DNA of 64,000 nucleotides, taken from contig JAUXNU010000127.1 in the NCBI GenBank assembly GCA_030682655.1, positions 14,597 to 78,596 of the forward strand. Reading direction: 5' to 3'. The notes under the pieces were generated by a model that saw only the letters and a program-made list of their open reading frames with translations, ran no database searches and was not told the origin of the DNA. This document shows, piece by piece, positions 5,706 through 62,697 of this stretch. The position numbers and the translations under genes are program-made. The stretch's first letter is position 1. Each line of letters opens with the position of its first letter. The DNA comes from Actinomycetota bacterium (lineage in GTDB: Bacteria; Actinomycetota; Coriobacteriia; Anaerosomatales; JAUXNU01).

Positions 5706-6256
5706 GACGGCTGACAGATGACAGGGGTTTCTCGCTGACCGAGCTCATCACGGTCACGGTTCTCCTGGGCGTGGTGCTCGCCATCTCCTACGGCGCGATG
5801 ATTGCGGTATACCGCGGCACCGACGTGAGCGATCGGCAGGCGACGATTTCGAGAGAGGCTGCTGCGCCGCTTGGAGCTATGGAAGAGATCATCTCTCAGG
5901 CGATCAGCGTGGACACGGCAAACGCCTACACGATGACCGTGCTGACTGATCGTGACAACAACAAAGTGATCGAGCGGCACATCTTCACGGCGAATGCCGA
6001 CGGCACGCTGACTCAGGTGACCTGGCTCACGAATGCCTCACGGGTAAACACGACTCGCATCGGGGATGTCACCTGGTCTCGAAACAACCGCAATGTCGCG
6101 AGAACGCAGCCACTCTTCTACTACTGGGATGGACAGAAGCCGCGTGCGAGGACCACTGATCCGGCACAAGTCGGGTACGTAGACATGAACCTCGTGGTGG
6201 AGGTCGACGGGCGGGAGTACCGGGACACGCGCTCGGTGCTGTTGCGAAACCGCTAG
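5699..6256 (+). CDS. Minor pilin / pseudopilin
   Basis: 185 aa. N-terminus MVGRLTDDRG|FSLTELITVTVLLGVVLAI (G/F/E+5 motif). The start overlaps the upstream stop (ATGGTAG). Confidence 0.7.
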   Translation: MVGRLTDDRGFSLTELITVTVLLGVVLAISYGAMIAVYRGTDVSDRQATISREAAAPLGAMEEIISQAISVDTANAYTMTVLTDRDNNKVIERHIFTANADGTLTQVTWLTNASRVNTTRIGDVTWSRNNRNVARTQPLFYYWDGQKPRARTTDPAQVGYVDMNLVVEVDGREYRDTRSVLLRNR

Positions 6257-26956: not shown

Positions 26957-27829
26957 ATGTACAACCTTCGCTACCATATCGCGTCGCTCGTGGCGGTCTT
27001 CCTTGCAATGGCGATCGGCCTGCTCCTTGGCACTATCGTCGTCGAGAGAGGTACTTTCGACAGGCAGCGCGATTCGATCGTGGAGAGCCTTCAGGATGAG
27101 TTTCGCACGCTTGCCGATGAGAACGATGTGCTTCGCACGGACAACGAGCACCTCGACGCTTTCGTAGGTGACCTGGTCCCCGCTCTCACGGGCGATGTCC
27201 TTGCGGGCAAGAGGTTCCTGGTGATCGCGTCGACCGGTAGAACCGACGGGCTCGGGGCTGTGACCCAGGCCATCGGGCAGGCCGGCGGAGAGGTGATAGT
27301 GGCGACGGAGAGCGAAGCCGGGATGGCACTTGCTGATCCCGCGGTCTCTCAGGTAGCGACACCGGTGGTGGGGGATCTGACGGGTGACGATCTGGTTTCG
27401 GCAGTCTCGAAGACGCTTGCTGCCGAGTGGGCGACTCCGGGCGTCGATCGCCCTCTCACAGATGCGCTGAGCGAAGCAGGTGCGATTCGCTTCGATCCCG
27501 CACTGCGGGAAGACGTGTTTGTGGATGGTGTGATCGCGATGGCTGCGTGGGACGGTGTACCAGATGACCTCGCGCTGAGGATAGCCGAGGAGCTTTCCCG
27601 GGTGGGCCGGATCAGCATCGGTGCGGAGGCCGGGACGAATCCGACGGGCGTCGCTGCTGCGAGTGCAGCGCAAGGTCTGTCTGCCGTCGACAACGCCAGC
27701 AGCGCCGCCGGGCGGCTGTCTGTGGTGTGGCTGCTCGCCGGACGGGCAAAGGGCTACTTCGGAACCGGGGATGCCGCTGACGCGCCATGGCCGACGATGG
27801 AGACGAAGACGGGCTCGCCGAAGGACTAG
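26957..27829 (+). CDS. MctB-like (DUF3186 / copper transporter family) membrane-anchored protein
   Basis: 290 aa. MYNLRYHIASLVAVFLAMAIGLLLG N-terminal anchor plus coiled-coil (SLQDEFRTLADENDVLRTDNEHL). Located after steA, as Rv1698 is in Mycobacterium. Confidence 0.6.
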   Translation: MYNLRYHIASLVAVFLAMAIGLLLGTIVVERGTFDRQRDSIVESLQDEFRTLADENDVLRTDNEHLDAFVGDLVPALTGDVLAGKRFLVIASTGRTDGLGAVTQAIGQAGGEVIVATESEAGMALADPAVSQVATPVVGDLTGDDLVSAVSKTLAAEWATPGVDRPLTDALSEAGAIRFDPALREDVFVDGVIAMAAWDGVPDDLALRIAEELSRVGRISIGAEAGTNPTGVAAASAAQGLSAVDNASSAAGRLSVVWLLAGRAKGYFGTGDAADAPWPTMETKTGSPKD

Positions 27830-28518
27830 GCGGGGGTGCGACGACGCTCGAACGCAAGCCGCGCCAACGCCCGTCCGACATGGACGAACTGCTGTCCCCT
27901 GTGGGCAAATCCCGTCAGATCGCGACCGGTTGCTGCGTGACTCATCGTGGTCGGTATCTCGATGACACGCATTCCCGCGCGCAGCGCGCGGACGGTCAGG
28001 GCGACTTCGACCCCGTATCCGAATGCGAAAGGCGTCACGTTCGCGAGACAACGGGCCGACAGCGCTCTTTGACCTGAGAGCGGGGCCTGTGCCACGAACC
28101 CGCCACCCATTCGAGCGATCCCCCAACGTGCGAGACCCTTGACGAGACCGACACCGGCTTTGCCCGCAGGGCGCGGGAATGCGGCAATCACCAAGTCCGC
28201 GCGTCCTTCGGAGACCGGGTCGAGAAGAAGCTGGCCCTGCTCCGCAGACTGGCCCAGGTCCCCGTCGAGAAGCAGGAGCACCTCGATCTCCTCGGCCAGA
28301 TGGGCGATGCCGGTGTCGAGGGCCGCGCCTTTGCCCACGTTGTCGGGCAGGGCGAGCACTTCGGCCCCCGCAGCCCGTGCGACTTCGGCCGTCGAGTCGG
28401 TGGAGCCGTCGTCGACGACCAGGACACGGTCGACACCGCGGATGGAGCGTGCGGCGATCACGGTCGCGCCGATGAGATCGGCTTCGTTGAAGGCGGGGAT
28501 GAGTGCGACGACGCTCAT
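27826..28518 (-). CDS. Family 2 glycosyltransferase (small, DPM1/GtrB-like)
   Basis: 230 aa from the internal ATG at 28518. ALIPAFNEADLIGATV, VVDDGSTDST, and DxD-like LLDGDL. ATGA overlap with the murJ stop. Its stop overlaps the mctB-like stop in a shared CTAG. Confidence 0.8.
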   Translation of the reverse strand: MSVVALIPAFNEADLIGATVIAARSIRGVDRVLVVDDGSTDSTAEVARAAGAEVLALPDNVGKGAALDTGIAHLAEEIEVLLLLDGDLGQSAEQGQLLLDPVSEGRADLVIAAFPRPAGKAGVGLVKGLARWGIARMGGGFVAQAPLSGQRALSARCLANVTPFAFGYGVEVALTVRALRAGMRVIEIPTTMSHAATGRDLTGFAHRGQQFVHVGRALARLAFERRRTPA

Positions 28519-30080
28519 CGAGATCGCCCTGTCAGTCCCACGATGCCTCTCCGGATGAGCGCCACGCCCTCTGGGATCTCGGGTACGCGCAGGAGGGCTG
28601 CGATGCCGTAGGTGACGCCAAGACCGAGCGAGCCGGCGATGGCGAGCTGGACGAGGAATCCGGCGCGCGCGTCGGAAAGACCGCGAGTCGCATACAGCAG
28701 GCCGACGACGACCGCCGCCCCAGCCGTTGATGCGACAAGCATCCGGGCCAGAATGGAGACGACGCCGCGCATGTCGAACGCGCCGATGCGGCGGCGAAGG
28801 ACAAACAGGAGGGCGACGAGGCTTATGGACGCGAACACCGCATCGGAGATAGGGATGCCCCGTAGTCCAAGCCCCTTCCAGCTCCCGATGCCGACTGTGA
28901 GGGTCGCGTACAGCGAAACCTGGACGACGGTCGCCGCGCCGTTGACGAGCATCGGCGTCTTGGTGTCCTGCATCGAGTAGAAGGTCCGGATGAGGAACAT
29001 GAACATTGCGAAGAAGAACAGCGCCACGCCCCACCAGACGAGTACTTCGGCGACGACCGGTATGTCCTCGGCAGTGAAACGACCGGCGCGATACAGGGTG
29101 GTCAGTGGTGTGGCCAGCGTGACAAGCATGGCCGCCATCGGCAGCATGAGGACGCCGGTGATGCGGAGTCCCCTGCCGAAGGTCAGCTTGAAACTCGACC
29201 AGTCGTTGCGTCCGGCCTGGTCGGAGAGCTCGGTGAAGATCGCCGTTGCCAGAGCCACGGCGAAGATGCCGTATGGAAGCTGGTAGAACATCCACGCGTA
29301 CATCAGTGTCGCCGGTCCTTCGGGGGAGACCTCGAAGGCGTAGGCGTTGCGGAAGGACACGGCGATCAGGTTCGTGACGACGTAGAGCACCGTGGGAACT
29401 GCCATCTTGCCGAGCCGGCGCATTCCCGGGTGCTTGAAATCGATGCGCAAGGTGTACGCAGGTTTGAGTCTGAGCAGGCTCGGGAGCTGCACGGCGAACA
29501 TGGCGAGCACTCCGAGAGACGTGCCGACTGCCAATCCGATTCGGGCCAGCTCAGGATTCGTCTCGCGGAAGGGAACGTAGAAGCCCAGCAGAGTGACGAT
29601 CACAACAAGGTTGTTGAACACGGGGCCGATAGTCGGCCAGAAGTAGCGCCTCTGCGAGTTGAGCACGGCGCTGATGATCGATCCTGCGCCGTAGAACACC
29701 ACCTGGACCGCGAAGAATCGGAAGAAGTACGTGGCGAGCGCCGCGTCGTCCGGACTGATACGAAATGTCTGGGTCCTGACGAACGCTTCGGCATACACCG
29801 TGCCAAGGACGGCTACCACGCTCAGGATGAGCGTGGTCAGGTTGAAGAGCGAGCTCGCGAAACGCCAGGCGTCTTCGCGGCTCTTGTCTCCCCACCACTC
29901 CAGAAAGATCGGTATGAAGAGCGACGAGATGATGCCGCCTGCGACGAGCTCGTAGATCATGTTCGGGATGTTGTTCGCGACGCCGTACGATGCAGCGAGC
30001 GCGGTCACTCCGAGCGCGTATGCCGTCGCCCAGGTGCGCACAAACCCCGTGACCCGGGACAGCGTCGTAGATATGGACAT
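28515..30080 (-). CDS. murJ: MurJ/MviN-family (MOP superfamily) lipid-linked glycan flippase
   Basis: 521 aa. LSRVTGFVRTWATAYALG...ANNIPNMIYELVAGG N-terminal MurJ signature and ~14 hydrophobic segments. Confidence 0.85.
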   Translation of the reverse strand: MSISTTLSRVTGFVRTWATAYALGVTALAASYGVANNIPNMIYELVAGGIISSLFIPIFLEWWGDKSREDAWRFASSLFNLTTLILSVVAVLGTVYAEAFVRTQTFRISPDDAALATYFFRFFAVQVVFYGAGSIISAVLNSQRRYFWPTIGPVFNNLVVIVTLLGFYVPFRETNPELARIGLAVGTSLGVLAMFAVQLPSLLRLKPAYTLRIDFKHPGMRRLGKMAVPTVLYVVTNLIAVSFRNAYAFEVSPEGPATLMYAWMFYQLPYGIFAVALATAIFTELSDQAGRNDWSSFKLTFGRGLRITGVLMLPMAAMLVTLATPLTTLYRAGRFTAEDIPVVAEVLVWWGVALFFFAMFMFLIRTFYSMQDTKTPMLVNGAATVVQVSLYATLTVGIGSWKGLGLRGIPISDAVFASISLVALLFVLRRRIGAFDMRGVVSILARMLVASTAGAAVVVGLLYATRGLSDARAGFLVQLAIAGSLGLGVTYGIAALLRVPEIPEGVALIRRGIVGLTGRSR

Positions 30081-30346
30081 TATCGCGGTGGAGCGCGCGA
30101 TAGTGGGCTGGGATATGGTCCTGCCTCCGTTCGGTCAGTCCGCTTGGACCCCTCCGGACCGCGTCACACACAATTGTATCCGAGCATGTGGCGCAGCGGC
30201 TGGGCGCCTTGACGGCGTCGATGACTCGTAGCCGTGTCGTGACCATGTGCCATACCGGCTTCGCGCGGCATTCCGCTATACTTGCGGGTGGGCGCCTCTA
30301 GCCCGGTCCCGTGCAGTCGCACGCAGGGCCATGTCCCCAGATATGA

Positions 30347-30372
30347 TCGTCGCACGTGTACACGTGCGACGA
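30347..30372. promoter_or_regulatory. 26-bp perfect palindrome (putative operator or 5'-UTR hairpin) abutting the RBS of the 771-aa membrane protein gene
   Basis: TCGTCGCACGTGT|ACACGTGCGACGA was checked base by base: 13+13 nt, no mismatch. The right arm overlaps the GAGGAG RBS (30371-30376), and the ATG is at 30382. Confidence 0.9.
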
Positions 30373-30381
30373 GGAGTGTGG

Positions 30382-32697
30382 ATGAAGCGTTCGCTGACAC
30401 TGGTTGTGATCGTCGCGTCGATCGTCGCGACACTACTGCCTGCTGCCGCCGCGAAAGACGTGCAGCCGGCGCGCCGGGTCGTGCTCGTCCTGGCCCCGTA
30501 TCTTGAATGGTCGGACATCACCGCAGAAAGTGCGCCTGCTATCGCAGAACTCGGTGCTTCAGGGGCTCTCGGGAATCTGAACATGCGCAACCGTGGCAGA
30601 CTCTCAAGCTTGTCGTCGCCGGTACAGGGCGCGCTCACCCTCTCGTCCGGTTCATGGGCGGCCGAGGACCCATTGGCAGCGGCGGCGTACGGCTCGGACG
30701 AGTACTACGAGGGCGGGACGGCCGGTGATGCGTTCCTGCGGGCCACAGGGGCCGATTCGGCCGGTGCACAGGTCGTCTACCTTGGGATGTCCCGTGCTTT
30801 GCGCTTCAACGAGCAGGCCGAGACGCTCGCGGTCAAACTCGGCGCTCTCGGCCAGGCAATCGTGGATGCGGGTGGAACCACCGCGGCCATTGGGAACTCC
30901 GATTCCGGGTACGAGGTACGTGGCCTGGCCAGGAGTCGCCCGGCCGCGCTCGTTGCAATGGACGCGCAGGGTCGTGTTGTCCTTGGCGACGTATCATCCG
31001 GACTGCTCCAAAGCGATTCCGAGGCGCCATTCGGCATATCGACCGATCTGGCTGCGTTCGAGAAGGAGTATCAGAGGGTCTCAGAGGAGTTATCGAAGGC
31101 CACAGGGCCAGTGCTGGTCGTTCTCGATCCGGGAGATCTTCAGCGAGCCAAGGAGTTCGCGCCTGAGGCTTCCCCGGCGGTTGCTCGGGCGCACCACAGG
31201 CAGGCGGTCCGGACGCTGGATGTCATCGTCGACATCGTGATGAACGGGCTACCGGACGACAGCGTCATCATGGTCGTTCCGCAGGCGCTGGTTGAGACTC
31301 CCGGTGAGGTCATGGGTCTTGCACCCGTCATCGTCGCCGGTCCAGGTTGGTCTGGATATGCCAGTTCCTCGTCGACGCAGCGAACGGGCCTCGTCACGAA
31401 CCTCGACGTTGCCGCCACGGTGACGGGCTCGCTGGGTATCGAGAAGCCGGTCGAGGTGCTAGGGAACCCCATGGTACCCGTGCGCAACTCGGGCTCACTC
31501 GCGGACAGGGTCGCCGAGTTGTCGTCTATGAACGACGCGGCGGTCGCAGTCGACAGCGCGAAGCCCGCGATCATCAATGCGTTCATCGCGTGCACTACGC
31601 TGATTCTCATGCTCGCGACGGTCGTTCTCCTGCGGGCGCGAAGATGGAGCGTTCGCACGGTCGATCGGGTGTCGCGCTCAGGTATCACGCTGCTGTTGAT
31701 AGCCCTGACGGTTCCGGTGGCATCGACGGCGATGTTCGCGCTTGGGACTCGTCCGCAGAGTGCTGCGGCTGCGAGCGTTCAGTTCGCGGTGGTGGGTGCG
31801 ATTCTGGCCGTCGCGGCGCTCGTGCTGCGACGGTTCGTCGCTCTGCGCGTTCCCGTCGCTATTCTCAGCTTGCTCGCTACCGGCGTGATACTTGTCGATC
31901 AGTGGTTCGACGCGCCGTGGTCCTTCACGAGCTTCCTTGGGTACTCTCCTCTGATGGGGGCGCGCTACTACGGACTTGGGAACGAGAGCGCGGCGGTGTT
32001 GGTCGGCTCGGTGCTCGTCGGAACAAGCCTGCTCATGGATCAGTTCCCTGAGTCTGCCTGGACCCGACACATGCGCTTGTGGCTCCTGCCGGGTATCGGT
32101 GCGGTCATCGTCGGTACCGCCGCAGCCCCGTTTCTTGGGGCAAATGTGGGAGTCGTCGTGTGGGGCGTGGTCGCCTTCGGATTCGCGTGGTCGCTCATGA
32201 ACCGTGTGCGTTTCGGCTGGAGGCTAGCGCTGGGGGTGGCGGCCATCGTCGTCGCGCTTCTGGTGGCGTTCTCACTTGTGGATCTGTCTGCGGGCACGGG
32301 AAGTCAGACGCATCTGGCCCGTGCGTGGGAGAGTGCGCGTGCGGGCGGCGTGGGCGAGCTCTGGCTTATCGTGGCGCGAAAGGCCGAGACGAACATGCGC
32401 GTTCTGACTCGAACGAACTGGGCGTACCTTCTTGTCGCGGTTCTCGGATTCCTTGGCTTCATGCGCTGGAGGCCTCAGGGTGATTTCGCGGACACGCTTG
32501 CGGAGAATCCCTACTTCTCCGCCGCGATGGCTGCCTGCCTCGTGGGTGGAGTGGCTGCATACCTGACCGAGGACTCGGGGATCGTGATCCCGGCGCTGAT
32601 GTTTCTCTACGTAGGAGTGGGCATTCTGTGCCTGATGCTCGACCGGCTGCCCGGTGTCATGCAAAGCGAGCATTCCGGGGAAGGGGACAGCTCGTGA
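30382..32697 (+). CDS. Large envelope protein: signal peptide + ~420-aa extracytoplasmic domain + polytopic C-terminal membrane domain (function unknown)
   Basis: 771 aa from the ATG at 30382 (RBS GAGGAG). MKRSLTLVVIVASIVATLLPAAAAKD signal-like N-terminus. The soluble region has alkaline-phosphatase-superfamily-like edge motifs (VVLVLAPYLEWSD...; TGLVTNLDVAATV). About 9-11 hydrophobic helices start at ~aa 430. Confidence 0.7.
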   Translation: MKRSLTLVVIVASIVATLLPAAAAKDVQPARRVVLVLAPYLEWSDITAESAPAIAELGASGALGNLNMRNRGRLSSLSSPVQGALTLSSGSWAAEDPLAAAAYGSDEYYEGGTAGDAFLRATGADSAGAQVVYLGMSRALRFNEQAETLAVKLGALGQAIVDAGGTTAAIGNSDSGYEVRGLARSRPAALVAMDAQGRVVLGDVSSGLLQSDSEAPFGISTDLAAFEKEYQRVSEELSKATGPVLVVLDPGDLQRAKEFAPEASPAVARAHHRQAVRTLDVIVDIVMNGLPDDSVIMVVPQALVETPGEVMGLAPVIVAGPGWSGYASSSSTQRTGLVTNLDVAATVTGSLGIEKPVEVLGNPMVPVRNSGSLADRVAELSSMNDAAVAVDSAKPAIINAFIACTTLILMLATVVLLRARRWSVRTVDRVSRSGITLLLIALTVPVASTAMFALGTRPQSAAAASVQFAVVGAILAVAALVLRRFVALRVPVAILSLLATGVILVDQWFDAPWSFTSFLGYSPLMGARYYGLGNESAAVLVGSVLVGTSLLMDQFPESAWTRHMRLWLLPGIGAVIVGTAAAPFLGANVGVVVWGVVAFGFAWSLMNRVRFGWRLALGVAAIVVALLVAFSLVDLSAGTGSQTHLARAWESARAGGVGELWLIVARKAETNMRVLTRTNWAYLLVAVLGFLGFMRWRPQGDFADTLAENPYFSAAMAACLVGGVAAYLTEDSGIVIPALMFLYVGVGILCLMLDRLPGVMQSEHSGEGDSS

Positions 32698-33659
32698 CAG
32701 ATTGGACGGCGGAGTCGGTACGCCTCGTCGCCGCGCTTCTGGCCGGATGGGGTCTGCCGGCCCTTGGGATGCACATGTTTGTGCCGACGCTCGAGACATC
32801 CGGACCGCATGTGCGGAACTACCGGGACGCGGATGTGTTCGTCGGACTCGGTACGGTCTGGGTGTTCTGGGTGATCGCGATGGTCGGGCTGAATACCGTA
32901 GCTGTCTCAGGGGTCTTCTTCGGCAGAGAGCTCGCCGCTCCGGTCGTATTCCAGGCCATCCCCGTAGTCGTAGCGGCGTTCGTTTTCGGACTGATCGATG
33001 ACGCCATGGGCGGTTCCGCAGAGAAGGGGTTTGGCGGTCACGTGAGGGCGCTCCTCAGAGGCAGGCTGACGACCGGCGGGCTGAAGCTCCTTGGCATCGG
33101 GGCGGCCTCGCTCGGCGTCGCGCTTGTCCTTGAGCTGTCGCGCGCGGGTGAACCCGGGGCGACTCCCGTGTGGCGGACCGCCGTCGCGGTAGTAGCCGCG
33201 ACCGGAATCATCGCGCTGAGTGCGAACCTCGTGAACCTCCTGGATGTGCGTCCGGCGCGGGCCATCAAGGCGCATACCGCACTGAGTCTCATCGTGGTAT
33301 GCGTGGCAGTGGCACGCGCGATCCAGCTGGACTTCTCCGCGGGCGCTTCTCTCTTCGAGGGTGTTGGTCTGTTCGTCATGATGATCGGGCCGATGGTGGC
33401 CGTGTGGCGCTGGGACGCCAGCGGCCGCGGGATGCTCGGGGATGCTGGAGCCAACGCTGCGGGCGCGCTGGCAGGCTTCATGCTGGCCGCGGTTCTGCCT
33501 CTGCCGGGCCAGGTGATCGCGGCGGCGGCACTCCTTGGCATGAACCTACTCTCGGAGCGGGTCTCGTTCTCGGCCGTGATCGAGCACAACCGCGCGCTGG
33601 CATGGGTGGACGGGCTCGGCAGGATGCCCGAGGTGACCGAAAATCGCCCGGCTTCGTGA
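32694..33659 (+). CDS. MraY/WecA-like (GT4 polyprenyl-phosphate sugar-1-P transferase family) membrane protein with a divergent catalytic loop
   Basis: 321 aa. GTGA overlap with the upstream stop. GLIDDAMG and MLGDAGANAAG resemble the MraY DD and GDxGS loops, but the NxxNxxDGxDGL loop reads NLVNLLDVRPARA. About 9-10 TM segments. Confidence 0.6.
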   Translation: MTDWTAESVRLVAALLAGWGLPALGMHMFVPTLETSGPHVRNYRDADVFVGLGTVWVFWVIAMVGLNTVAVSGVFFGRELAAPVVFQAIPVVVAAFVFGLIDDAMGGSAEKGFGGHVRALLRGRLTTGGLKLLGIGAASLGVALVLELSRAGEPGATPVWRTAVAVVAATGIIALSANLVNLLDVRPARAIKAHTALSLIVVCVAVARAIQLDFSAGASLFEGVGLFVMMIGPMVAVWRWDASGRGMLGDAGANAAGALAGFMLAAVLPLPGQVIAAAALLGMNLLSERVSFSAVIEHNRALAWVDGLGRMPEVTENRPAS

Positions 33660-38811: not shown

Positions 38812-39717
38812 ATGCGCTCTCACGTTGCGGAATTCATGGCCTATCTGGCCGTTGAGAGGGGGGCGTCCCCTCACACGGTCGATGCATACCGCCGCGACCT
38901 GGCAGGCTACATGGACGCGCTCGATGCCCGCGGCGTTGCTGACGTCGATGCGGTGACGCGGGACGACATCATAGCCTACCTCGTGCGACTGCACGAAGCC
39001 GGCCTTGCTCCCAGCACCGTCGAGCGTCGGGTTGCGGCGGTCAAGAGCTTCCACAAGTTCCTTGTGCGCGAGGGCGTTACCGAGAACCAACCGGCTGCGC
39101 GGGTGAGGTTGCCGAAGGTTCCCGAGAGGCTGCCGGACTCCATCTCGATCGAGCAGGCCAAGCACCTGCTTTCGCAGACCTTCGGCGACGGGCCGCCCGG
39201 CATACGGGACCGCGCGATTCTGGAGATGCTATACGGATGCGGAATGCGTGTCAGCGAGTTGACCTCACTCGAACTCGACGACCTGGCGCTTGACGACGGC
39301 TTTGTTCGCGTGTTCGGAAAAGGCGAGAAGGAGCGCGTCGTCCCGATCGGGAAGCCAGCTACGGCTGCCTTGTCGGAGTACCTTGCCCACGGGCGGCCGT
39401 ACCTTCGGACGAAGGGCTCCACCCGGCCAGCGGAGCCGTCAGCCGTCTTTCTCAGTGTGCGTGGCCGACGCCTGACGCGTCAGGCGGTCTACGCGATGGT
39501 ACGGAAGTATGGTGAACTCGTCGGGCTTCGTCTCCACCCTCACACGTTGCGGCACTCGTTCGCTACTCACATGCTCGAAGGGGGTGCGGACCTGCGCGCA
39601 TTGCAGGAGATGCTCGGGCATGCGGACATATCCACAACGCAGGTGTATACGCATGTGGACCGCCAGCACATCCGCGAGGAGTACCTCACAACTCACCCGC
39701 GGGCACGTTTGCGATAG
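38812..39717 (+). CDS. xerD: Site-specific tyrosine recombinase XerD
   Basis: 301 aa. R...HxxR...Y catalytic set (GMRVSEL, HTLRHSFATHMLEGGADLR, GHADISTTQVYTHV). Confidence 0.85.
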   Translation: MRSHVAEFMAYLAVERGASPHTVDAYRRDLAGYMDALDARGVADVDAVTRDDIIAYLVRLHEAGLAPSTVERRVAAVKSFHKFLVREGVTENQPAARVRLPKVPERLPDSISIEQAKHLLSQTFGDGPPGIRDRAILEMLYGCGMRVSELTSLELDDLALDDGFVRVFGKGEKERVVPIGKPATAALSEYLAHGRPYLRTKGSTRPAEPSAVFLSVRGRRLTRQAVYAMVRKYGELVGLRLHPHTLRHSFATHMLEGGADLRALQEMLGHADISTTQVYTHVDRQHIREEYLTTHPRARLR

Positions 39718-47208: not shown

Positions 47209-47217
47209 GCCTTGACA

Positions 47218-48153
47218 ATGGAATACCGGCACACCCCAGTTTTGCTGGCCGAGGTCACGCAGCACTTATCGTTGCACCCCGGTTCGATAATCGTCGACTG
47301 TACCTTAGGCGGGGCAGGTCACGCGAAGCGGATTGCAGAATCGATCGCACCGACAGGCATTCTCGTCGGCATCGACCAAGATGATTCAGCGCTTGACGCA
47401 GCAGCAGTCACACTCCGCCTCGGCCAGCAGATCATCCTCTTGAAGGGGAACTTCGGCGATCTTGACGACCTGCTAGCGCAGGCCGGCATCCCATACGCCG
47501 ACGGTTTCCTGTTCGACCTCGGCGTGTCCTCGCCACAGCTCGACCTCCGGCATCGGGGGTTCTCGTACCAGGAGGACGCGGCCCTGGACATGCGGATGGA
47601 TGGGCGCGGGTCTATCACAGCAGCAGACATCGTCAATTCCTACTCAGAAGAGCAGCTGACCCGCATCATCCGCGAGTACGGAGAGGAACGGTGGGCCTCG
47701 CGCATCGCAGCCTTCATCCTAGCCGCGCGGGGCCGCCGACCAGTCGAGAGGACCGGCGAGCTCGTCGAGATCATCAAGAACGCAATCCCGGCGTCGGCAC
47801 GTCGCAGCGGGCCTCACCCGGCCAGGCGTACGTTCCAGGCGCTCCGGATCGCGGTGAACTCCGAGCTCGAAGTCCTCGAACGCGGACTTCGAGCTGCGGT
47901 CAACTGGCTTGCACCTGGTGGCCGCATCGCGGTCATCAGCTATCACTCGCTTGAGGATCGCATCGTGAAGACGCTCTTCGGCGAACTTGCGGCGGGGTGT
48001 GTGTGTCCTCCCGAGTTGCCAGCGTGTGTGTGTAGCAGGGAGCCGGTACTCCGAATCGTCACGAAGAAACCCGTCGTGCCTACGGCGGACGAGATTGAGC
48101 GCAACCCGCGGGCAAGAAGTGCGAGGCTCCGGGTGGCAGAGCGAAAGACGTAG
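47218..48153 (+). CDS. rsmH: 16S rRNA (cytosine1402-N4)-methyltransferase RsmH
   Basis: MEYRHTPVLLAEV, DCTLGGAGHA and DLGVSSPQLD motifs. TTG 47212 is the alternative start. Confidence 0.9.
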   Translation: MEYRHTPVLLAEVTQHLSLHPGSIIVDCTLGGAGHAKRIAESIAPTGILVGIDQDDSALDAAAVTLRLGQQIILLKGNFGDLDDLLAQAGIPYADGFLFDLGVSSPQLDLRHRGFSYQEDAALDMRMDGRGSITAADIVNSYSEEQLTRIIREYGEERWASRIAAFILAARGRRPVERTGELVEIIKNAIPASARRSGPHPARRTFQALRIAVNSELEVLERGLRAAVNWLAPGGRIAVISYHSLEDRIVKTLFGELAAGCVCPPELPACVCSREPVLRIVTKKPVVPTADEIERNPRARSARLRVAERKT

Positions 48154-48190
48154 CAGGGTCGGAACGCGGAGTTGAAGGAGGTGGGTCGCG

Positions 48191-48742
48191 GTGGCAGTTG
48201 CAGCACGGAAGGCCTCGTACAATGCGCAGGTGAGTCGCCGCGCTCCTCTTCGGCTGGCCGGATCGGCCTGCGGGCGTCGCGCGAGCAGCCGCGGTGTTTC
48301 GAAGTGCAAGAGCGCATATACCGCATGCTTGACCATCATGGTCGCCCTGGCAGTCGCAGGGCTGGGTCGTGTGGCACTGTCGGTCGAGGCTACAGAAACG
48401 TCCTTCGAGAAGGGCGTGCTTGCCCGAGACATCAAGGCCGAGCGCCTCGAGGGCGATCTTCTTGAGGTGGACAAGAGCGCGCTCACCACGCCCTCGCGCA
48501 TCGAGAGAATCGCGGGCAGCACGATGGAGATGGCTGCTGCGGGGGAGGTGTCCTATCTTGAGCTTCCCGCCGAACCCGTTCCTGTTGCCGAATCCGGTGC
48601 GGAGTGGGGCGAAGAGTCGGACCGGGGCAGTAGCCCTGCGGCGGAAGGCAAGCGAGGCCTGTTCCAGGCGGTGATGGATATGGCTGCAGGTGAGGCGCAG
48701 GTCCTTCTCGTAGGTGATGCAGGACTCGCATCGTCCCGATGA
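48191..48742 (+). CDS. ftsL: FtsL-like cell division protein
   Basis: 183 aa. GTG start ~10 nt after GAAGGAGGTG. Basic N-terminus, single TM (CLTIMVALAVAGLGRVAL), a short coiled-coil. Position between rsmH and ftsI. Confidence 0.65.
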   Translation: MAVAARKASYNAQVSRRAPLRLAGSACGRRASSRGVSKCKSAYTACLTIMVALAVAGLGRVALSVEATETSFEKGVLARDIKAERLEGDLLEVDKSALTTPSRIERIAGSTMEMAAAGEVSYLELPAEPVPVAESGAEWGEESDRGSSPAAEGKRGLFQAVMDMAAGEAQVLLVGDAGLASSR

Positions 48743-50511
48743 CGAAACGGAAGTCCAAGACGCCGGGAGGACATGTGGCGCGAGGGGCCAAGCGAACGAA
48801 TCGGGAGGGCCGGTACACGGTCCTCCTTGCGATTCTGGTGGTCTTTCTCGTTGCCGTAGCTGCGAGGCTCGTCTACCTGCAGGTCGTTGTCGCGTCTGCA
48901 TACGCGCAGCAGGCTGTCGATCAGCGGATGCGAGACATCACGCTTGCCCCGCGCCGTGGCTCCATCTACGACCGCGAGGGCGAGCCATTGGCCGTAAGCA
49001 TGGAAGCGCGCACGATCTACGCCGCGCCCCACTCGGTCGTCGATCCCAAAGGCACCGCGAAGTCCCTCGCGAAGGTCCTTGGCGGGAAAGCCAAGGAGTA
49101 CGAGACGAAACTCACGAAAGACACCGGATTCGTCTACATCGCCCGCAAGGTAGATATGGATCGCGCGAAAGCGCTCGAAGACCTCGATCTGCAAGGGATC
49201 GGGTTCCTTGAGGACTCGCGTCGGACCTACCCGTCAGGGGAGCTCGCGTGTCAGGTACTCGGCTTCGTGGGCGTCGATGACGACGGTCTCGCCGGTCTTG
49301 AGAAGTATTACGACGAAGTGCTCAAGGGTGAACCGGGAGCGATTCTTGCGGAACGGGACCCATTCGGGCGTCCCATCCCCGGGGGCGTCATGCGCAATGA
49401 GGACCCGATCGCCGGCGGGAACGTGGTCCTTACCATCGACAAGGACATCCAATACCAGGCCCAGGTGGAGTTGGCCGCGGCTGTCGAGAAGTGGAAGGCC
49501 AAGAGCGGCTCCGTGATCGTGATGGATCCGCGCGACGGGTCCATCTACGCAATGGCGTCGGTGCCGGGATTCAACCCGAACTTCTTCGGCAAGGCCGATG
49601 ATGCCGCCTATCGCAACCGCCCGATCGCCGACACATTCGAGCCCGGGTCGACCGTGAAGTCCCTCACCGCGGCCTCGGTCATAGACAAGGGTCTCTACGG
49701 GCCGGACAGCATGTTCCGTCTGCCTCCGAGTATCAAGGTCGGCGGTCGGCGAATCGGGGAGTCGCATCCTCGGCCGACTGTGAACTGGTCTCTCTCAGAG
49801 ATCGTGACGAACTCCTCCAACGTCGGTGCGGTCAAGCTCGGTATGGCACTCGGACCGAAGGGCCTGTACTCGTACTTCGACCGTTTTGGTCTGACCGAGA
49901 AGACGGGAGTGGACTTCCCTGGCGAGGCGAAAGGCTGGCTGCCTCCACCCGAGGACTGGTCGTCGTCGACGATCGGCACCGTGCCTTTCGGACAGGGTGT
50001 GTCGATGACCCCGCTTCAACTTGCCAGGTCGTTCGCCGCCATAGCCAACGGCGGAGAGCTCGTCACCCCGCACTTCCTGCTCTCGCTGCCTGAGGACCCC
50101 GATACCGCCTTCAGCTGGCCGAAGAAGCGAGCGATCTCGGCGGAAGCCGCCCGCACGACGACCGAGGTACTCAAGCATGTCGTGTCCGAGGGCACGGGAA
50201 CCGAGGCGGCTGTGTCAGGGTACGCGGTTGCGGGGAAGACGGGCACTGCGCAGAAGGCGCGGACTGACGCTCCCGGATATGCAGCGGGGAAGTACATGGC
50301 CTCGTTCTTCGGGTATCTTCCGGCGGATGATCCGCAGGTGCTGATCGTGGTGATCCTCGATGAGCCATCCAATGCGATCTACGGTGGCGTTGTCGCGGCG
50401 CCGACCTTCAGTGCTCTTGGGCAGTTCAGTGTCTCGCACCTGAAGATCCCGCCCTCGACGGCGACTCCGCGTTCCGTCGACGAGACGGCAACGGGTTCGG
50501 AGAAGCCCTGA
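48739..50511 (+). CDS. ftsI: Class B penicillin-binding protein (FtsI-type transpeptidase)
   Basis: 590 aa. ATGA overlap with ftsL. TM anchor and the SxxK (GSTVKSL), SxN (NSSNVG) and KTG (GKTGTAQ) motifs. Confidence 0.85.
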   Translation: MTKRKSKTPGGHVARGAKRTNREGRYTVLLAILVVFLVAVAARLVYLQVVVASAYAQQAVDQRMRDITLAPRRGSIYDREGEPLAVSMEARTIYAAPHSVVDPKGTAKSLAKVLGGKAKEYETKLTKDTGFVYIARKVDMDRAKALEDLDLQGIGFLEDSRRTYPSGELACQVLGFVGVDDDGLAGLEKYYDEVLKGEPGAILAERDPFGRPIPGGVMRNEDPIAGGNVVLTIDKDIQYQAQVELAAAVEKWKAKSGSVIVMDPRDGSIYAMASVPGFNPNFFGKADDAAYRNRPIADTFEPGSTVKSLTAASVIDKGLYGPDSMFRLPPSIKVGGRRIGESHPRPTVNWSLSEIVTNSSNVGAVKLGMALGPKGLYSYFDRFGLTEKTGVDFPGEAKGWLPPPEDWSSSTIGTVPFGQGVSMTPLQLARSFAAIANGGELVTPHFLLSLPEDPDTAFSWPKKRAISAEAARTTTEVLKHVVSEGTGTEAAVSGYAVAGKTGTAQKARTDAPGYAAGKYMASFFGYLPADDPQVLIVVILDEPSNAIYGGVVAAPTFSALGQFSVSHLKIPPSTATPRSVDETATGSEKP

Positions 50512-62543: not shown

Positions 62544-62580
62544 TTGTAGACGCGGTCTGCGAAGGCCGCGATCTCGAAGG

Positions 62581-62618
62581 CCCGGATGCGGCGGCGGTAT
62601 CACCCCGCCGCATCCGGG
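62581..62618 (+). terminator. Intrinsic-terminator-like hairpin after ftsZ
   Basis: CCCGGATGCGGCGG (62581-62594) pairs with CCGCCGCATCCGGG (62605-62618): perfect 14-bp stem, 10-nt loop, followed by CTCCACTTTCTTC. Confidence 0.55.
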
Positions 62619-62643
62619 CTCCACTTTCTTCAGGGAGAAGAAG

Positions 62644-62675
62644 AGACCCGCCGACTTCGAGAAGACGGCGGGTCT
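62644..62675 (-). terminator. Hairpin terminating the convergent - strand gene
   Basis: AGACCCGCCG (62644-62653) pairs with CGGCGGGTCT (62666-62675). On the - strand it is followed by CTTCTTCTCC. Confidence 0.45.
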
Positions 62676-62697
62676 GGTCTTTCCACATTCCTGGAGC

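Follow-up and report, generated by a model that had tools for sequence, protein, structure and literature searches.

The window, by which we mean the whole 64-kb stretch of DNA analyzed here, is from an uncultured Actinomycetota/Coriobacteriia-like metagenome-assembled genome and contains a 301-bp intergenic region from which two gene pairs diverge (Table 1). On the plus strand lie the genes for a 771-amino-acid (771-aa) protein and a 321-aa membrane protein, and on the minus strand lie genes for a MurJ-like flippase and a putative glycosyltransferase. The block is flanked by recN/steA/mctB-like genes on one side and by pyrG on the other. Farther downstream, the window also holds a gene for an XerC/D-type tyrosine recombinase (38812-39717) and the start of a division and cell-wall (dcw) cluster with mraW/rsmH and a PBP transpeptidase (47212-50511). 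The subject of this analysis is a perfect palindrome that sits within the intergenic region, directly beside the ribosome-binding site of the 771-aa gene.

Table 1. Features of the divergent intergenic region and of the genes that it separates, in window coordinates
Feature	Coordinates	Strand	Basis or remark
GT2 polyprenyl-phosphate glycosyltransferase-like gene, after the murJ-like gene	27826-28518	-	protein scan
murJ-like flippase gene, divergent	28515..30080	-	protein scan
Candidate -10 box of the divergent murJ-like gene (TACAAT on the minus strand)	30173..30178	-	conserved intergenic block; inference
Degenerate direct repeats GTAGCC-N5-GTGACC-N6-CATACC	30228..30256	.	window version of the conserved GTCACC-N5-GTCACC
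-10 box TATACT of the 771-aa gene	30277..30282	+	equivalent place in 37/37 orthologous loci
P1 hairpin GGGC-GCCUCUA-GCCC, 5' end of the leader	30290..30304	+	GGGC block conserved
P2, 10-bp hairpin GGUCCCGUGC-AGUC-GCACG-CA-GGGCC	30305..30330	+	compensatory changes versus L081
UGUCCCC, predicted single-stranded	30332..30338	+	YCCCC mid-leader in nearly all leadered orthologs
Palindrome, last stem-loop of the leader (P3)	30347..30372	+	sequence, simulation, and fold; same in L082
Shine-Dalgarno core GGAG	30373..30376	+	in a 5-nt linker from the palindrome hairpin to a weak AUG-containing hairpin
771-aa gene: signal peptide, extracytoplasmic alkaline-phosphatase/sulfatase-fold domain, and polytopic membrane domain	30382..32697	+	AlphaFold, Foldseek
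321-aa membrane protein gene; GTG overlaps the stop of the 771-aa gene (GTGA)	32694..33659	+	reading frames

Neither product of the plus-strand pair belongs to a described family by the searches made here: Pfam and NCBIfam gave no match for the 771-aa protein, and no family match was found for the 321-aa membrane protein. Insight into the former comes from structure prediction. Its AlphaFold model has a pLDDT of 86, and Foldseek matched the ectodomain to arylsulfatases and to the ectodomains of YejM/PbgA and BcsG, with weak hints at the level of sequence. Members of the family occur in many Coriobacteriia metagenome-assembled genomes and, at approximately 27% identity, in Clostridia. Given the alkaline-phosphatase-fold ectodomain, the membrane domain, and this family context, the label "envelope gene" is a reasonable one for a gene whose function is predicted from a model. 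The family is unannotated, and a membrane protein of 310 to 330 aa is always encoded next to it. Also, in the Coriobacteriia loci that were examined, the 771-aa gene diverges from genes for a MurJ-like flippase and a GT2 protein. An alignment of 18 members of the family has invariant residues at D506, Q507, R528, Y530, G531, N534, E535, H644, R666, K667, and E730-G733.

The palindrome consists of TCGTCGCACGTGT followed without a spacer by ACACGTGCGACGA, giving two 13-nt arms that are free of mismatches and that cannot be extended (A30346 and G30373 are not complementary). It contains two CACGTG cores (30353-58 and 30361-66), its half-sites form the dyad GCACGTGT/ACACGTGC, and it runs into the GAGGAG at 30371-76 that precedes the ATG at 30382. 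An earlier, sequence-only reading of this DNA had described the 13+13 repeat, its two cores, and the positions of GAGGAG and ATG, and all of these agree with the sequence. Its further claim, that this is the longest perfect palindrome noticed in the window outside a terminator position, holds among repeats with zero spacer, where the runner-up has an arm of 9 nt, and needs a small correction when spacers are admitted, as inverted repeat I4 (62580-62619) has perfect 15-nt arms around a 10-nt spacer. I4 has a strong neighbor at 62638-62681, a second inverted repeat with 21-nt arms that are 86% complementary.

Such symmetry is not expected by chance. In 300 simulated 64-kb windows (first-order Markov), the maximum arm length was between 7 and 12 nt, always short of 13, which corresponds roughly to p < 0.005 per window and makes the palindrome improbable even for a genome of a few megabases. 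An assembly artifact is ruled out by L082, a separate Logan assembly of this organism in which the sequence is identical. Within the window, it is present once, even when up to three mismatches are allowed. The palindrome core (30351-30368) is, in addition, an 18-bp perfect alternating pyrimidine-purine tract, a Z-DNA-prone type of sequence, and runs rich in GUGUG/CGUG occur at the same site in two relatives, L081 and L001, that are introduced below.

Placing the palindrome relative to transcription relied on a comparison of 37 orthologous loci, namely the window and 36 other genomes or contigs. A metagenome scan with the 771-aa protein added only one distant locus (L083). The first 140 residues used as a protein query gave no scored match, not even to the source protein P0001, which looks like a limitation of the tool; the full-length 771-aa query recovered the identical protein P0001. 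In all 37 loci, a -10-like hexamer (TATACT or TATCAT/TATGAT) follows TTCSGC. The distance from this hexamer to the gene divides the loci into two groups. In 28, including the window, about 90 to 125 nt separate the hexamer from a start that is led by a Shine-Dalgarno (SD) sequence. The other nine (L004, L005, L008, L009, L012, L015, L016, L028, and L031) lack an SD and have the hexamer 6 to 8 nt ahead of the ATG, which implies that these genes are transcribed as leaderless mRNAs and that the hexamer is the promoter of the gene.

By this comparison, transcription in the window most likely starts at approximately 30288-30290, about 7 nt past TATACT, producing a 5' leader of roughly 93 nt. The distance from TATACT, the one conserved -10 box, to the start of the palindrome is some 65 nt, and in the leader the palindrome would occupy positions of about +59 to +84, outside the promoter. 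A promoter consensus scan reported no sites and missed the conserved -10 box too, for lack of a -35 match. One further hexamer deserves mention, TATGAT (30342-47), which fits TANNNT and whose last base is also the first of the palindrome. It might serve as a second -10 box, in which case the palindrome would coincide with a start site, though the hexamer is not conserved in L081, which has AGTGAA there.

Other signals in the region are conserved at the level of DNA. In the leaderless orthologs, GTCACC-N5-GTCACC repeats stand at a constant -52 relative to the ATG, and many leadered orthologs carry them ahead of the -10 box; carriers with the repeats at about -52 include L009, L028, L005, L016, and L007. 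These repeats are a candidate site for an activator or response regulator. The response-regulator assignment is drawn from their 11-bp spacing, and we presume a resemblance to OmpR/PhoB-type sites in the style of a PHO box or of MtrA. Similarly, a block of the form (A/T)TTGTA or AGTGTA-N-CCGAG is kept in orthologous intergenic regions, and its ATTGTA-N-CCGAG version probably marks the -10 box of the divergent murJ-like gene. As judged by this comparison, the conserved DNA-level signals of the region appear to be the direct repeats and the -10 blocks, not the palindrome.

Two further observations concern the start region of these loci. The leaderless locus L004 has a perfect 9-bp inverted repeat, CCATGGCGC-TCGG-GCGCCATGG, at approximately 5963-5984, 2 nt before its -10 box TATCAT, a position that is far more operator-like than that of the palindrome in the window. 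Also, an open reading frame (30282-30506) can be read from the GTG at 30288, a GTG or ATG likewise lies 5 nt after the -10 box in L081 and L001, and in L001 the TGA of such a frame (approximately 5844-5960) overlaps the main ATG (ATGA). A translated upstream frame was considered and set aside: the frame across UCCCC varies, and L003, L002, and others have no start, so there is probably no real peptide.

Evidence that the leader is under selection comes from L081, the sole close relative, whose protein is 75% identical; no other sequence in the collections searched exceeded 59%. At fourfold-degenerate sites, the window and L081 agree at 39% of positions, compared with the 29% that composition predicts; neutral sites are thus near saturation. 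By comparison, identity is 76% across the 155 nt before the ATG, 77% across the leader, and 71% across the palindrome region, and the stretch from SD to ATG is identical at 9/9 positions. The conservation ends a few codons into the gene, which points to constraint on the leader rather than to a recombination tract.

How this constraint acts is best seen in P2. Between the window and L081, four of its 10 pairs have changed without any being broken, and in three of the four both partners differ (G-C to A-U, C-G to G-C, and G-C to A-U). Because pairs are kept through double changes, the region upstream of the palindrome appears to act as RNA, and these compensatory changes are the best evidence from the alignment for a functional, transcribed RNA there. 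The GGG of P1 is invariant in an alignment of 20 leaders. The C-run of the single-stranded UGUCCCC element is not complementary to the SD.

Searches for a structure shared more widely gave a mixed picture. A covariance model of P1, P2, and UGUCCCC, built from two sequences (the window and L081), ranked the leaders of L086 (E = 8.5e-4), L003, L001, and L085 next after its seeds, most of them without significance, and aligned P1 in all four; it found no further copy in 486 kb. An nhmmer sequence profile likewise placed orthologous leaders first, mostly without significance, and found no extra copies. RNAalifold returned no consensus structure for the 20 leaders, whose MAFFT alignment was too poor. 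Folding z-scores of orthologous leaders averaged about 0; the window alone stood out, along with the 5' part of L081. A long-range pairing between 5' GGGCRC and 3' GYGCCC was rejected, as it performed no better than shuffles (mean z = -0.26). Rfam gave no match at gathering scores in the whole window and only noise in 30000-30500 (E = 2.7 to 6.4).

The palindrome itself has a different history from P2. Its counterpart in L081, ACGUCCCGCGUGU-U-AGACGUGUGCCGC, lies in the same register and has an odd center and a 5-nt loop, with 8/13 Watson-Crick pairs and one G-U pair. The differences include a one-base indel in the loop and a change of one A-U to G-U; an RNA hairpin would tolerate both without cost, but a protein that binds DNA as a dimer would be expected to cope with them poorly. 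An equivalent palindrome is absent from the remaining orthologous loci. Unrelated hairpins stand right before the SD in L001, L095, L097, and L085/L094. Over the 40 nt before the SD, the window has a folding z-score of -4.25, while 23 orthologs average -0.03 and so fold no better than shuffled sequence. Leader folding z-scores thus lend no support to a P3 hairpin conserved throughout the family.

Comparing the arms one by one reveals which of them changed. On the left, the window, L081, L001, and L086 all have the core GCRCGUG directly behind CGUC. On the right, a 10-mer beside the SD, GUGUGCCGCA, is the same in L081 and in the outgroup L001, within a right arm that reads UAGACGUGUGCCGCA in the L081 state. 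In the window, by contrast, reverse-complementing the left arm gives the right arm exactly. Relative to L081/L001, the right arm carries three substitutions and has lost a single base at two places, each change adding to the symmetry, and two of these five changes fall in the loop, where they bring no gain in RNA. Since L081 and L001 have the right-arm 10-mer in common and four taxa the left core, the right arm of the window appears to be derived and its left arm near-ancestral, a polarity set by a single close relative and a single outgroup (L001, 58% protein identity). The ancestral element thus looks like an imperfect quasi-palindrome that was symmetrized in the lineage of the window, and we infer that a single template switch made all five right-arm changes. 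Template switching is documented as a means of creating or perfecting RNA hairpins (PMC8794818; also PMC7202029 and PMC8604942), and quasi-palindrome template-switch mutation is documented in E. coli (PMC7202029).

As RNA, the palindrome is predicted by RNAfold to form a stem of 11 bp with a GUAC loop (-18.3 kcal/mol; z = -3.9). The hairpin of about 11 bp with this loop that had been drawn from the sequence alone is hence exactly recovered. The accompanying view that it partly occludes the SD does not survive: only the GA of GAGGAG lies within the stem, GGAG is predicted to be single-stranded, and in a partition function of the full leader, the unpaired probabilities within GGAG are 0.98 (G), 0.93 (G), and 0.89 (A), with an SD opening cost of about 1 kcal/mol. 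Opening the whole ribosome-docking region costs a similar 10.5 to 12.4 kcal/mol, L081 and a version of the window with an ancestralized right arm included. Predicted SD accessibility is nearly the same in the window, L081, and the ancestralized window, so no clear functional gain is predicted. An RNA thermometer or another SD-sequestering hairpin was considered and rejected, given the unpaired GGAG and a perfect stem of -18.3 kcal/mol.

The sequence-only reading had called the palindrome an ideal operator for a dimeric repressor and had taken it to point to dedicated control of the downstream gene pair. A dimeric repressor bound to the dyad would block RNA polymerase, either by standing in its way within the leader or by acting on a second promoter with the TATGAT at 30342-47 as its -10 box. 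Several observations are in keeping with this: the dyad symmetry runs perfectly straight through the center, the primary sequence is 71% conserved with L081 despite the lost pairing there, and leader-internal operators are generally known, e.g., CIRCE/HrcA. The central GTGTACAC would also fit the GT-N-TA-N-AC pattern that we take to be typical of GntR/HutC operators. Nevertheless, the palindrome lies well downstream of the only conserved -10 box. In L081, symmetry falls to 8/13 and the half-site spacing is off by one base, and the other loci have no palindrome. Following the suggestion that further half-sites might define a regulon, searches of the 64-kb window and of 1.0 Mb of relatives' loci found no related site: the 16-mer core has no similar site in the window at three or fewer mismatches, the half-site occurs there five times (3.7 expected), CACGTG occurs 20 times (28.8 expected), and the relatives' loci hold no copy. 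Viral contigs gave six matches to the 16-mer, about the estimated chance expectation. In agreement with the earlier remark that no regulator gene is adjacent, no transcription-factor domain was detected in the proteins scanned within approximately 10 kb on either side of the palindrome. A literature search for the palindrome sequence returned only unrelated primers and oligonucleotides. Taken against its position off the promoter, the symmetry lost in L081, and the lack of a second site or nearby regulator in the DNA and proteins searched, the operator is an unlikely reading. Dedicated control of the gene pair is still plausible and is better credited to the whole leader and to the direct repeats upstream of the -10 box. 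Even less credible, to the point of being negligible, is a transcription attenuator or terminator or a REP-like repeated element. A GC-rich 11-bp stem would suit these classes, but there is no U-tract (the next bases are GGAGUGUGGAUG), a terminator scan reported no sites, no gene ends at the palindrome, and the flanking genes diverge. Against a REP- or MITE-like repeat, the element is single copy in the window, and the 1.0 Mb of relatives' loci contain none besides L082.

We tentatively propose, somewhat short of thinking it probable, that the palindrome belongs to the 5' untranslated leader of a two-gene envelope operon, where it forms an mRNA stem-loop, and is not a promoter operator. A transcript starting about 7 nt after the TATACT at 30277-82 would carry, in order, P1, P2, the single-stranded UGUCCCC, the palindrome, and, one base later, GGAG. 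One replication template switch, i.e., a quasi-palindrome correction of the intrastrand or interstrand kind, would have rewritten the right arm as the complement of the left arm, turning a weak hairpin into an 11-bp hairpin of -18 kcal/mol. The resulting rigid helix would abut the ribosome-binding site without pairing to the SD, and its likeliest effect would be on translation initiation and mRNA stability: it might insulate the SD by keeping the upstream leader off it, restrict the ribosome standby region, or block 5'-to-3' decay just ahead of the SD. That the hairpin functions at the RNA level at all is a possibility that we hold with similar reserve. A strong hairpin at the pre-SD site is not a conserved requirement, as evidenced by the near-zero mean z-score of the 23 orthologs. 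Moreover, symmetry through the four loop bases is superfluous for an RNA hairpin (its chance of arising is 1 in 16) and fits a cause at the DNA level, either a mutational mechanism or protein recognition. The mutational mechanism might be the whole explanation. Under this alternative, which we consider rather unlikely, a recent template switch struck a tolerant part of the leader and left a by-product with no more function than the weaker ancestral element. The derived changes all run toward symmetry, including loop bases that offer no RNA benefit; orthologs do not conserve strong hairpins at this site; predicted SD accessibility is unchanged; and the mechanism is documented (PMC8794818). On the other hand, strong purifying selection acts on the leader around it (77% identity versus 39% at fourfold sites), a change of 13 kcal/mol beside the SD is unlikely to be neutral in such a leader, and without selection a perfect 26-mer would be expected to decay quickly. 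Alternatively, P1, P2, and UGUCCCC might sense a signal in the manner of a riboswitch, with the palindrome hairpin as a lineage-specific output module. The strong conservation of the leader relative to neutral sites, the compensatory changes in P2, the recurrence of GGGC and YCCCC blocks across leadered orthologs, the rank given to orthologous leaders by the two-sequence covariance model (L086 at E = 8.5e-4), and a variable 3' part typical of expression platforms are all compatible with such a device. We nevertheless judge it very unlikely, because nine orthologs lack any leader, leader folding z-scores average about 0, GGGCRC/GYGCCC complementarity is no better than that of shuffles (mean z = -0.26), RNAalifold found no consensus on the MAFFT alignment, Rfam gave no match, 486 kb held no second copy, and the hairpin does not sequester the SD. 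A bolder version, also distinctly unlikely though marginally less so, is that P1, P2, UGUCCCC, and a 3' hairpin that varies among lineages make the whole leader of about 93 nt a cis-regulatory RNA not described before, controlling an uncharacterized envelope-modification operon in uncultured Coriobacteriia, for which the palindrome would be an output helix acquired in one template-switch step.

These results carry a caution, namely, that a perfect palindrome beside a ribosome-binding site is not necessarily an operator. Comparison of orthologous promoters is what placed this one in a transcript, and one close relative is what indicated its recent perfecting. If the template switch is true, the locus offers a clean bacterial case in which a single mutational event made a strong RNA helix in a selected leader. 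Two byproducts of the work are possibly worth more than the palindrome: the 771-aa gene appears to be leaderless in some relatives and has a conserved leader of about 90 to 125 nt in others, and an uncharacterized family of envelope proteins is found in both Coriobacteriia and Clostridia.

Among known leader elements, the palindrome is most readily set beside CIRCE/HrcA, with which it shares an inverted repeat that stands between the start site and the start codon and that can act as both DNA and RNA. CIRCE has 9-bp arms around a 9-nt spacer (consensus TTAGCACTC-N9-GAGTGCTAA), is conserved across phyla, and lies upstream of groES and dnaK; the palindrome differs in having no spacer, another sequence, no such conservation, and a different operon. 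Palindromic repressor operators in general share its dyad symmetry, here 13+13, but not its placement, which, given the inferred start site, overlaps neither a promoter core nor a start site, nor its lack of conserved symmetry in orthologs. As a 5' UTR stem-loop beside a ribosome-binding site, the palindrome also resembles SD-proximal translational hairpins and RNA thermometers. In thermometers such as ROSE and fourU, the SD or AUG is paired in weak, mismatched helices that melt, whereas the helix here is perfect, stable (-18.3 kcal/mol), and leaves GGAG unpaired. Like the 5' UTR stabilizers of ompA, ermC, and aprE and like STAB-SD, it is a stable leader helix near an SD and could impede 5'-end-dependent decay. 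Classical stabilizer stem-loops (ompA, ermC, and aprE) are located at the extreme 5' end, a place that is held here by P1, with the palindrome lying about 59 nt in.

The closest likeness concerns origin. The element is best described as a lineage-specific stem-loop in a conserved, selected leader, probably perfected by a template switch; it is ordinary in kind but has an origin that is unusually clear. It differs from documented hairpins perfected in this way (PMC8794818 and PMC7202029) in that the event here is read from three taxa only. It resembles them in that a relative has an imperfect repeat at the same site, in that the site is apparently transcribed, and in that five clustered differences are accounted for if one arm served as the template for the other.
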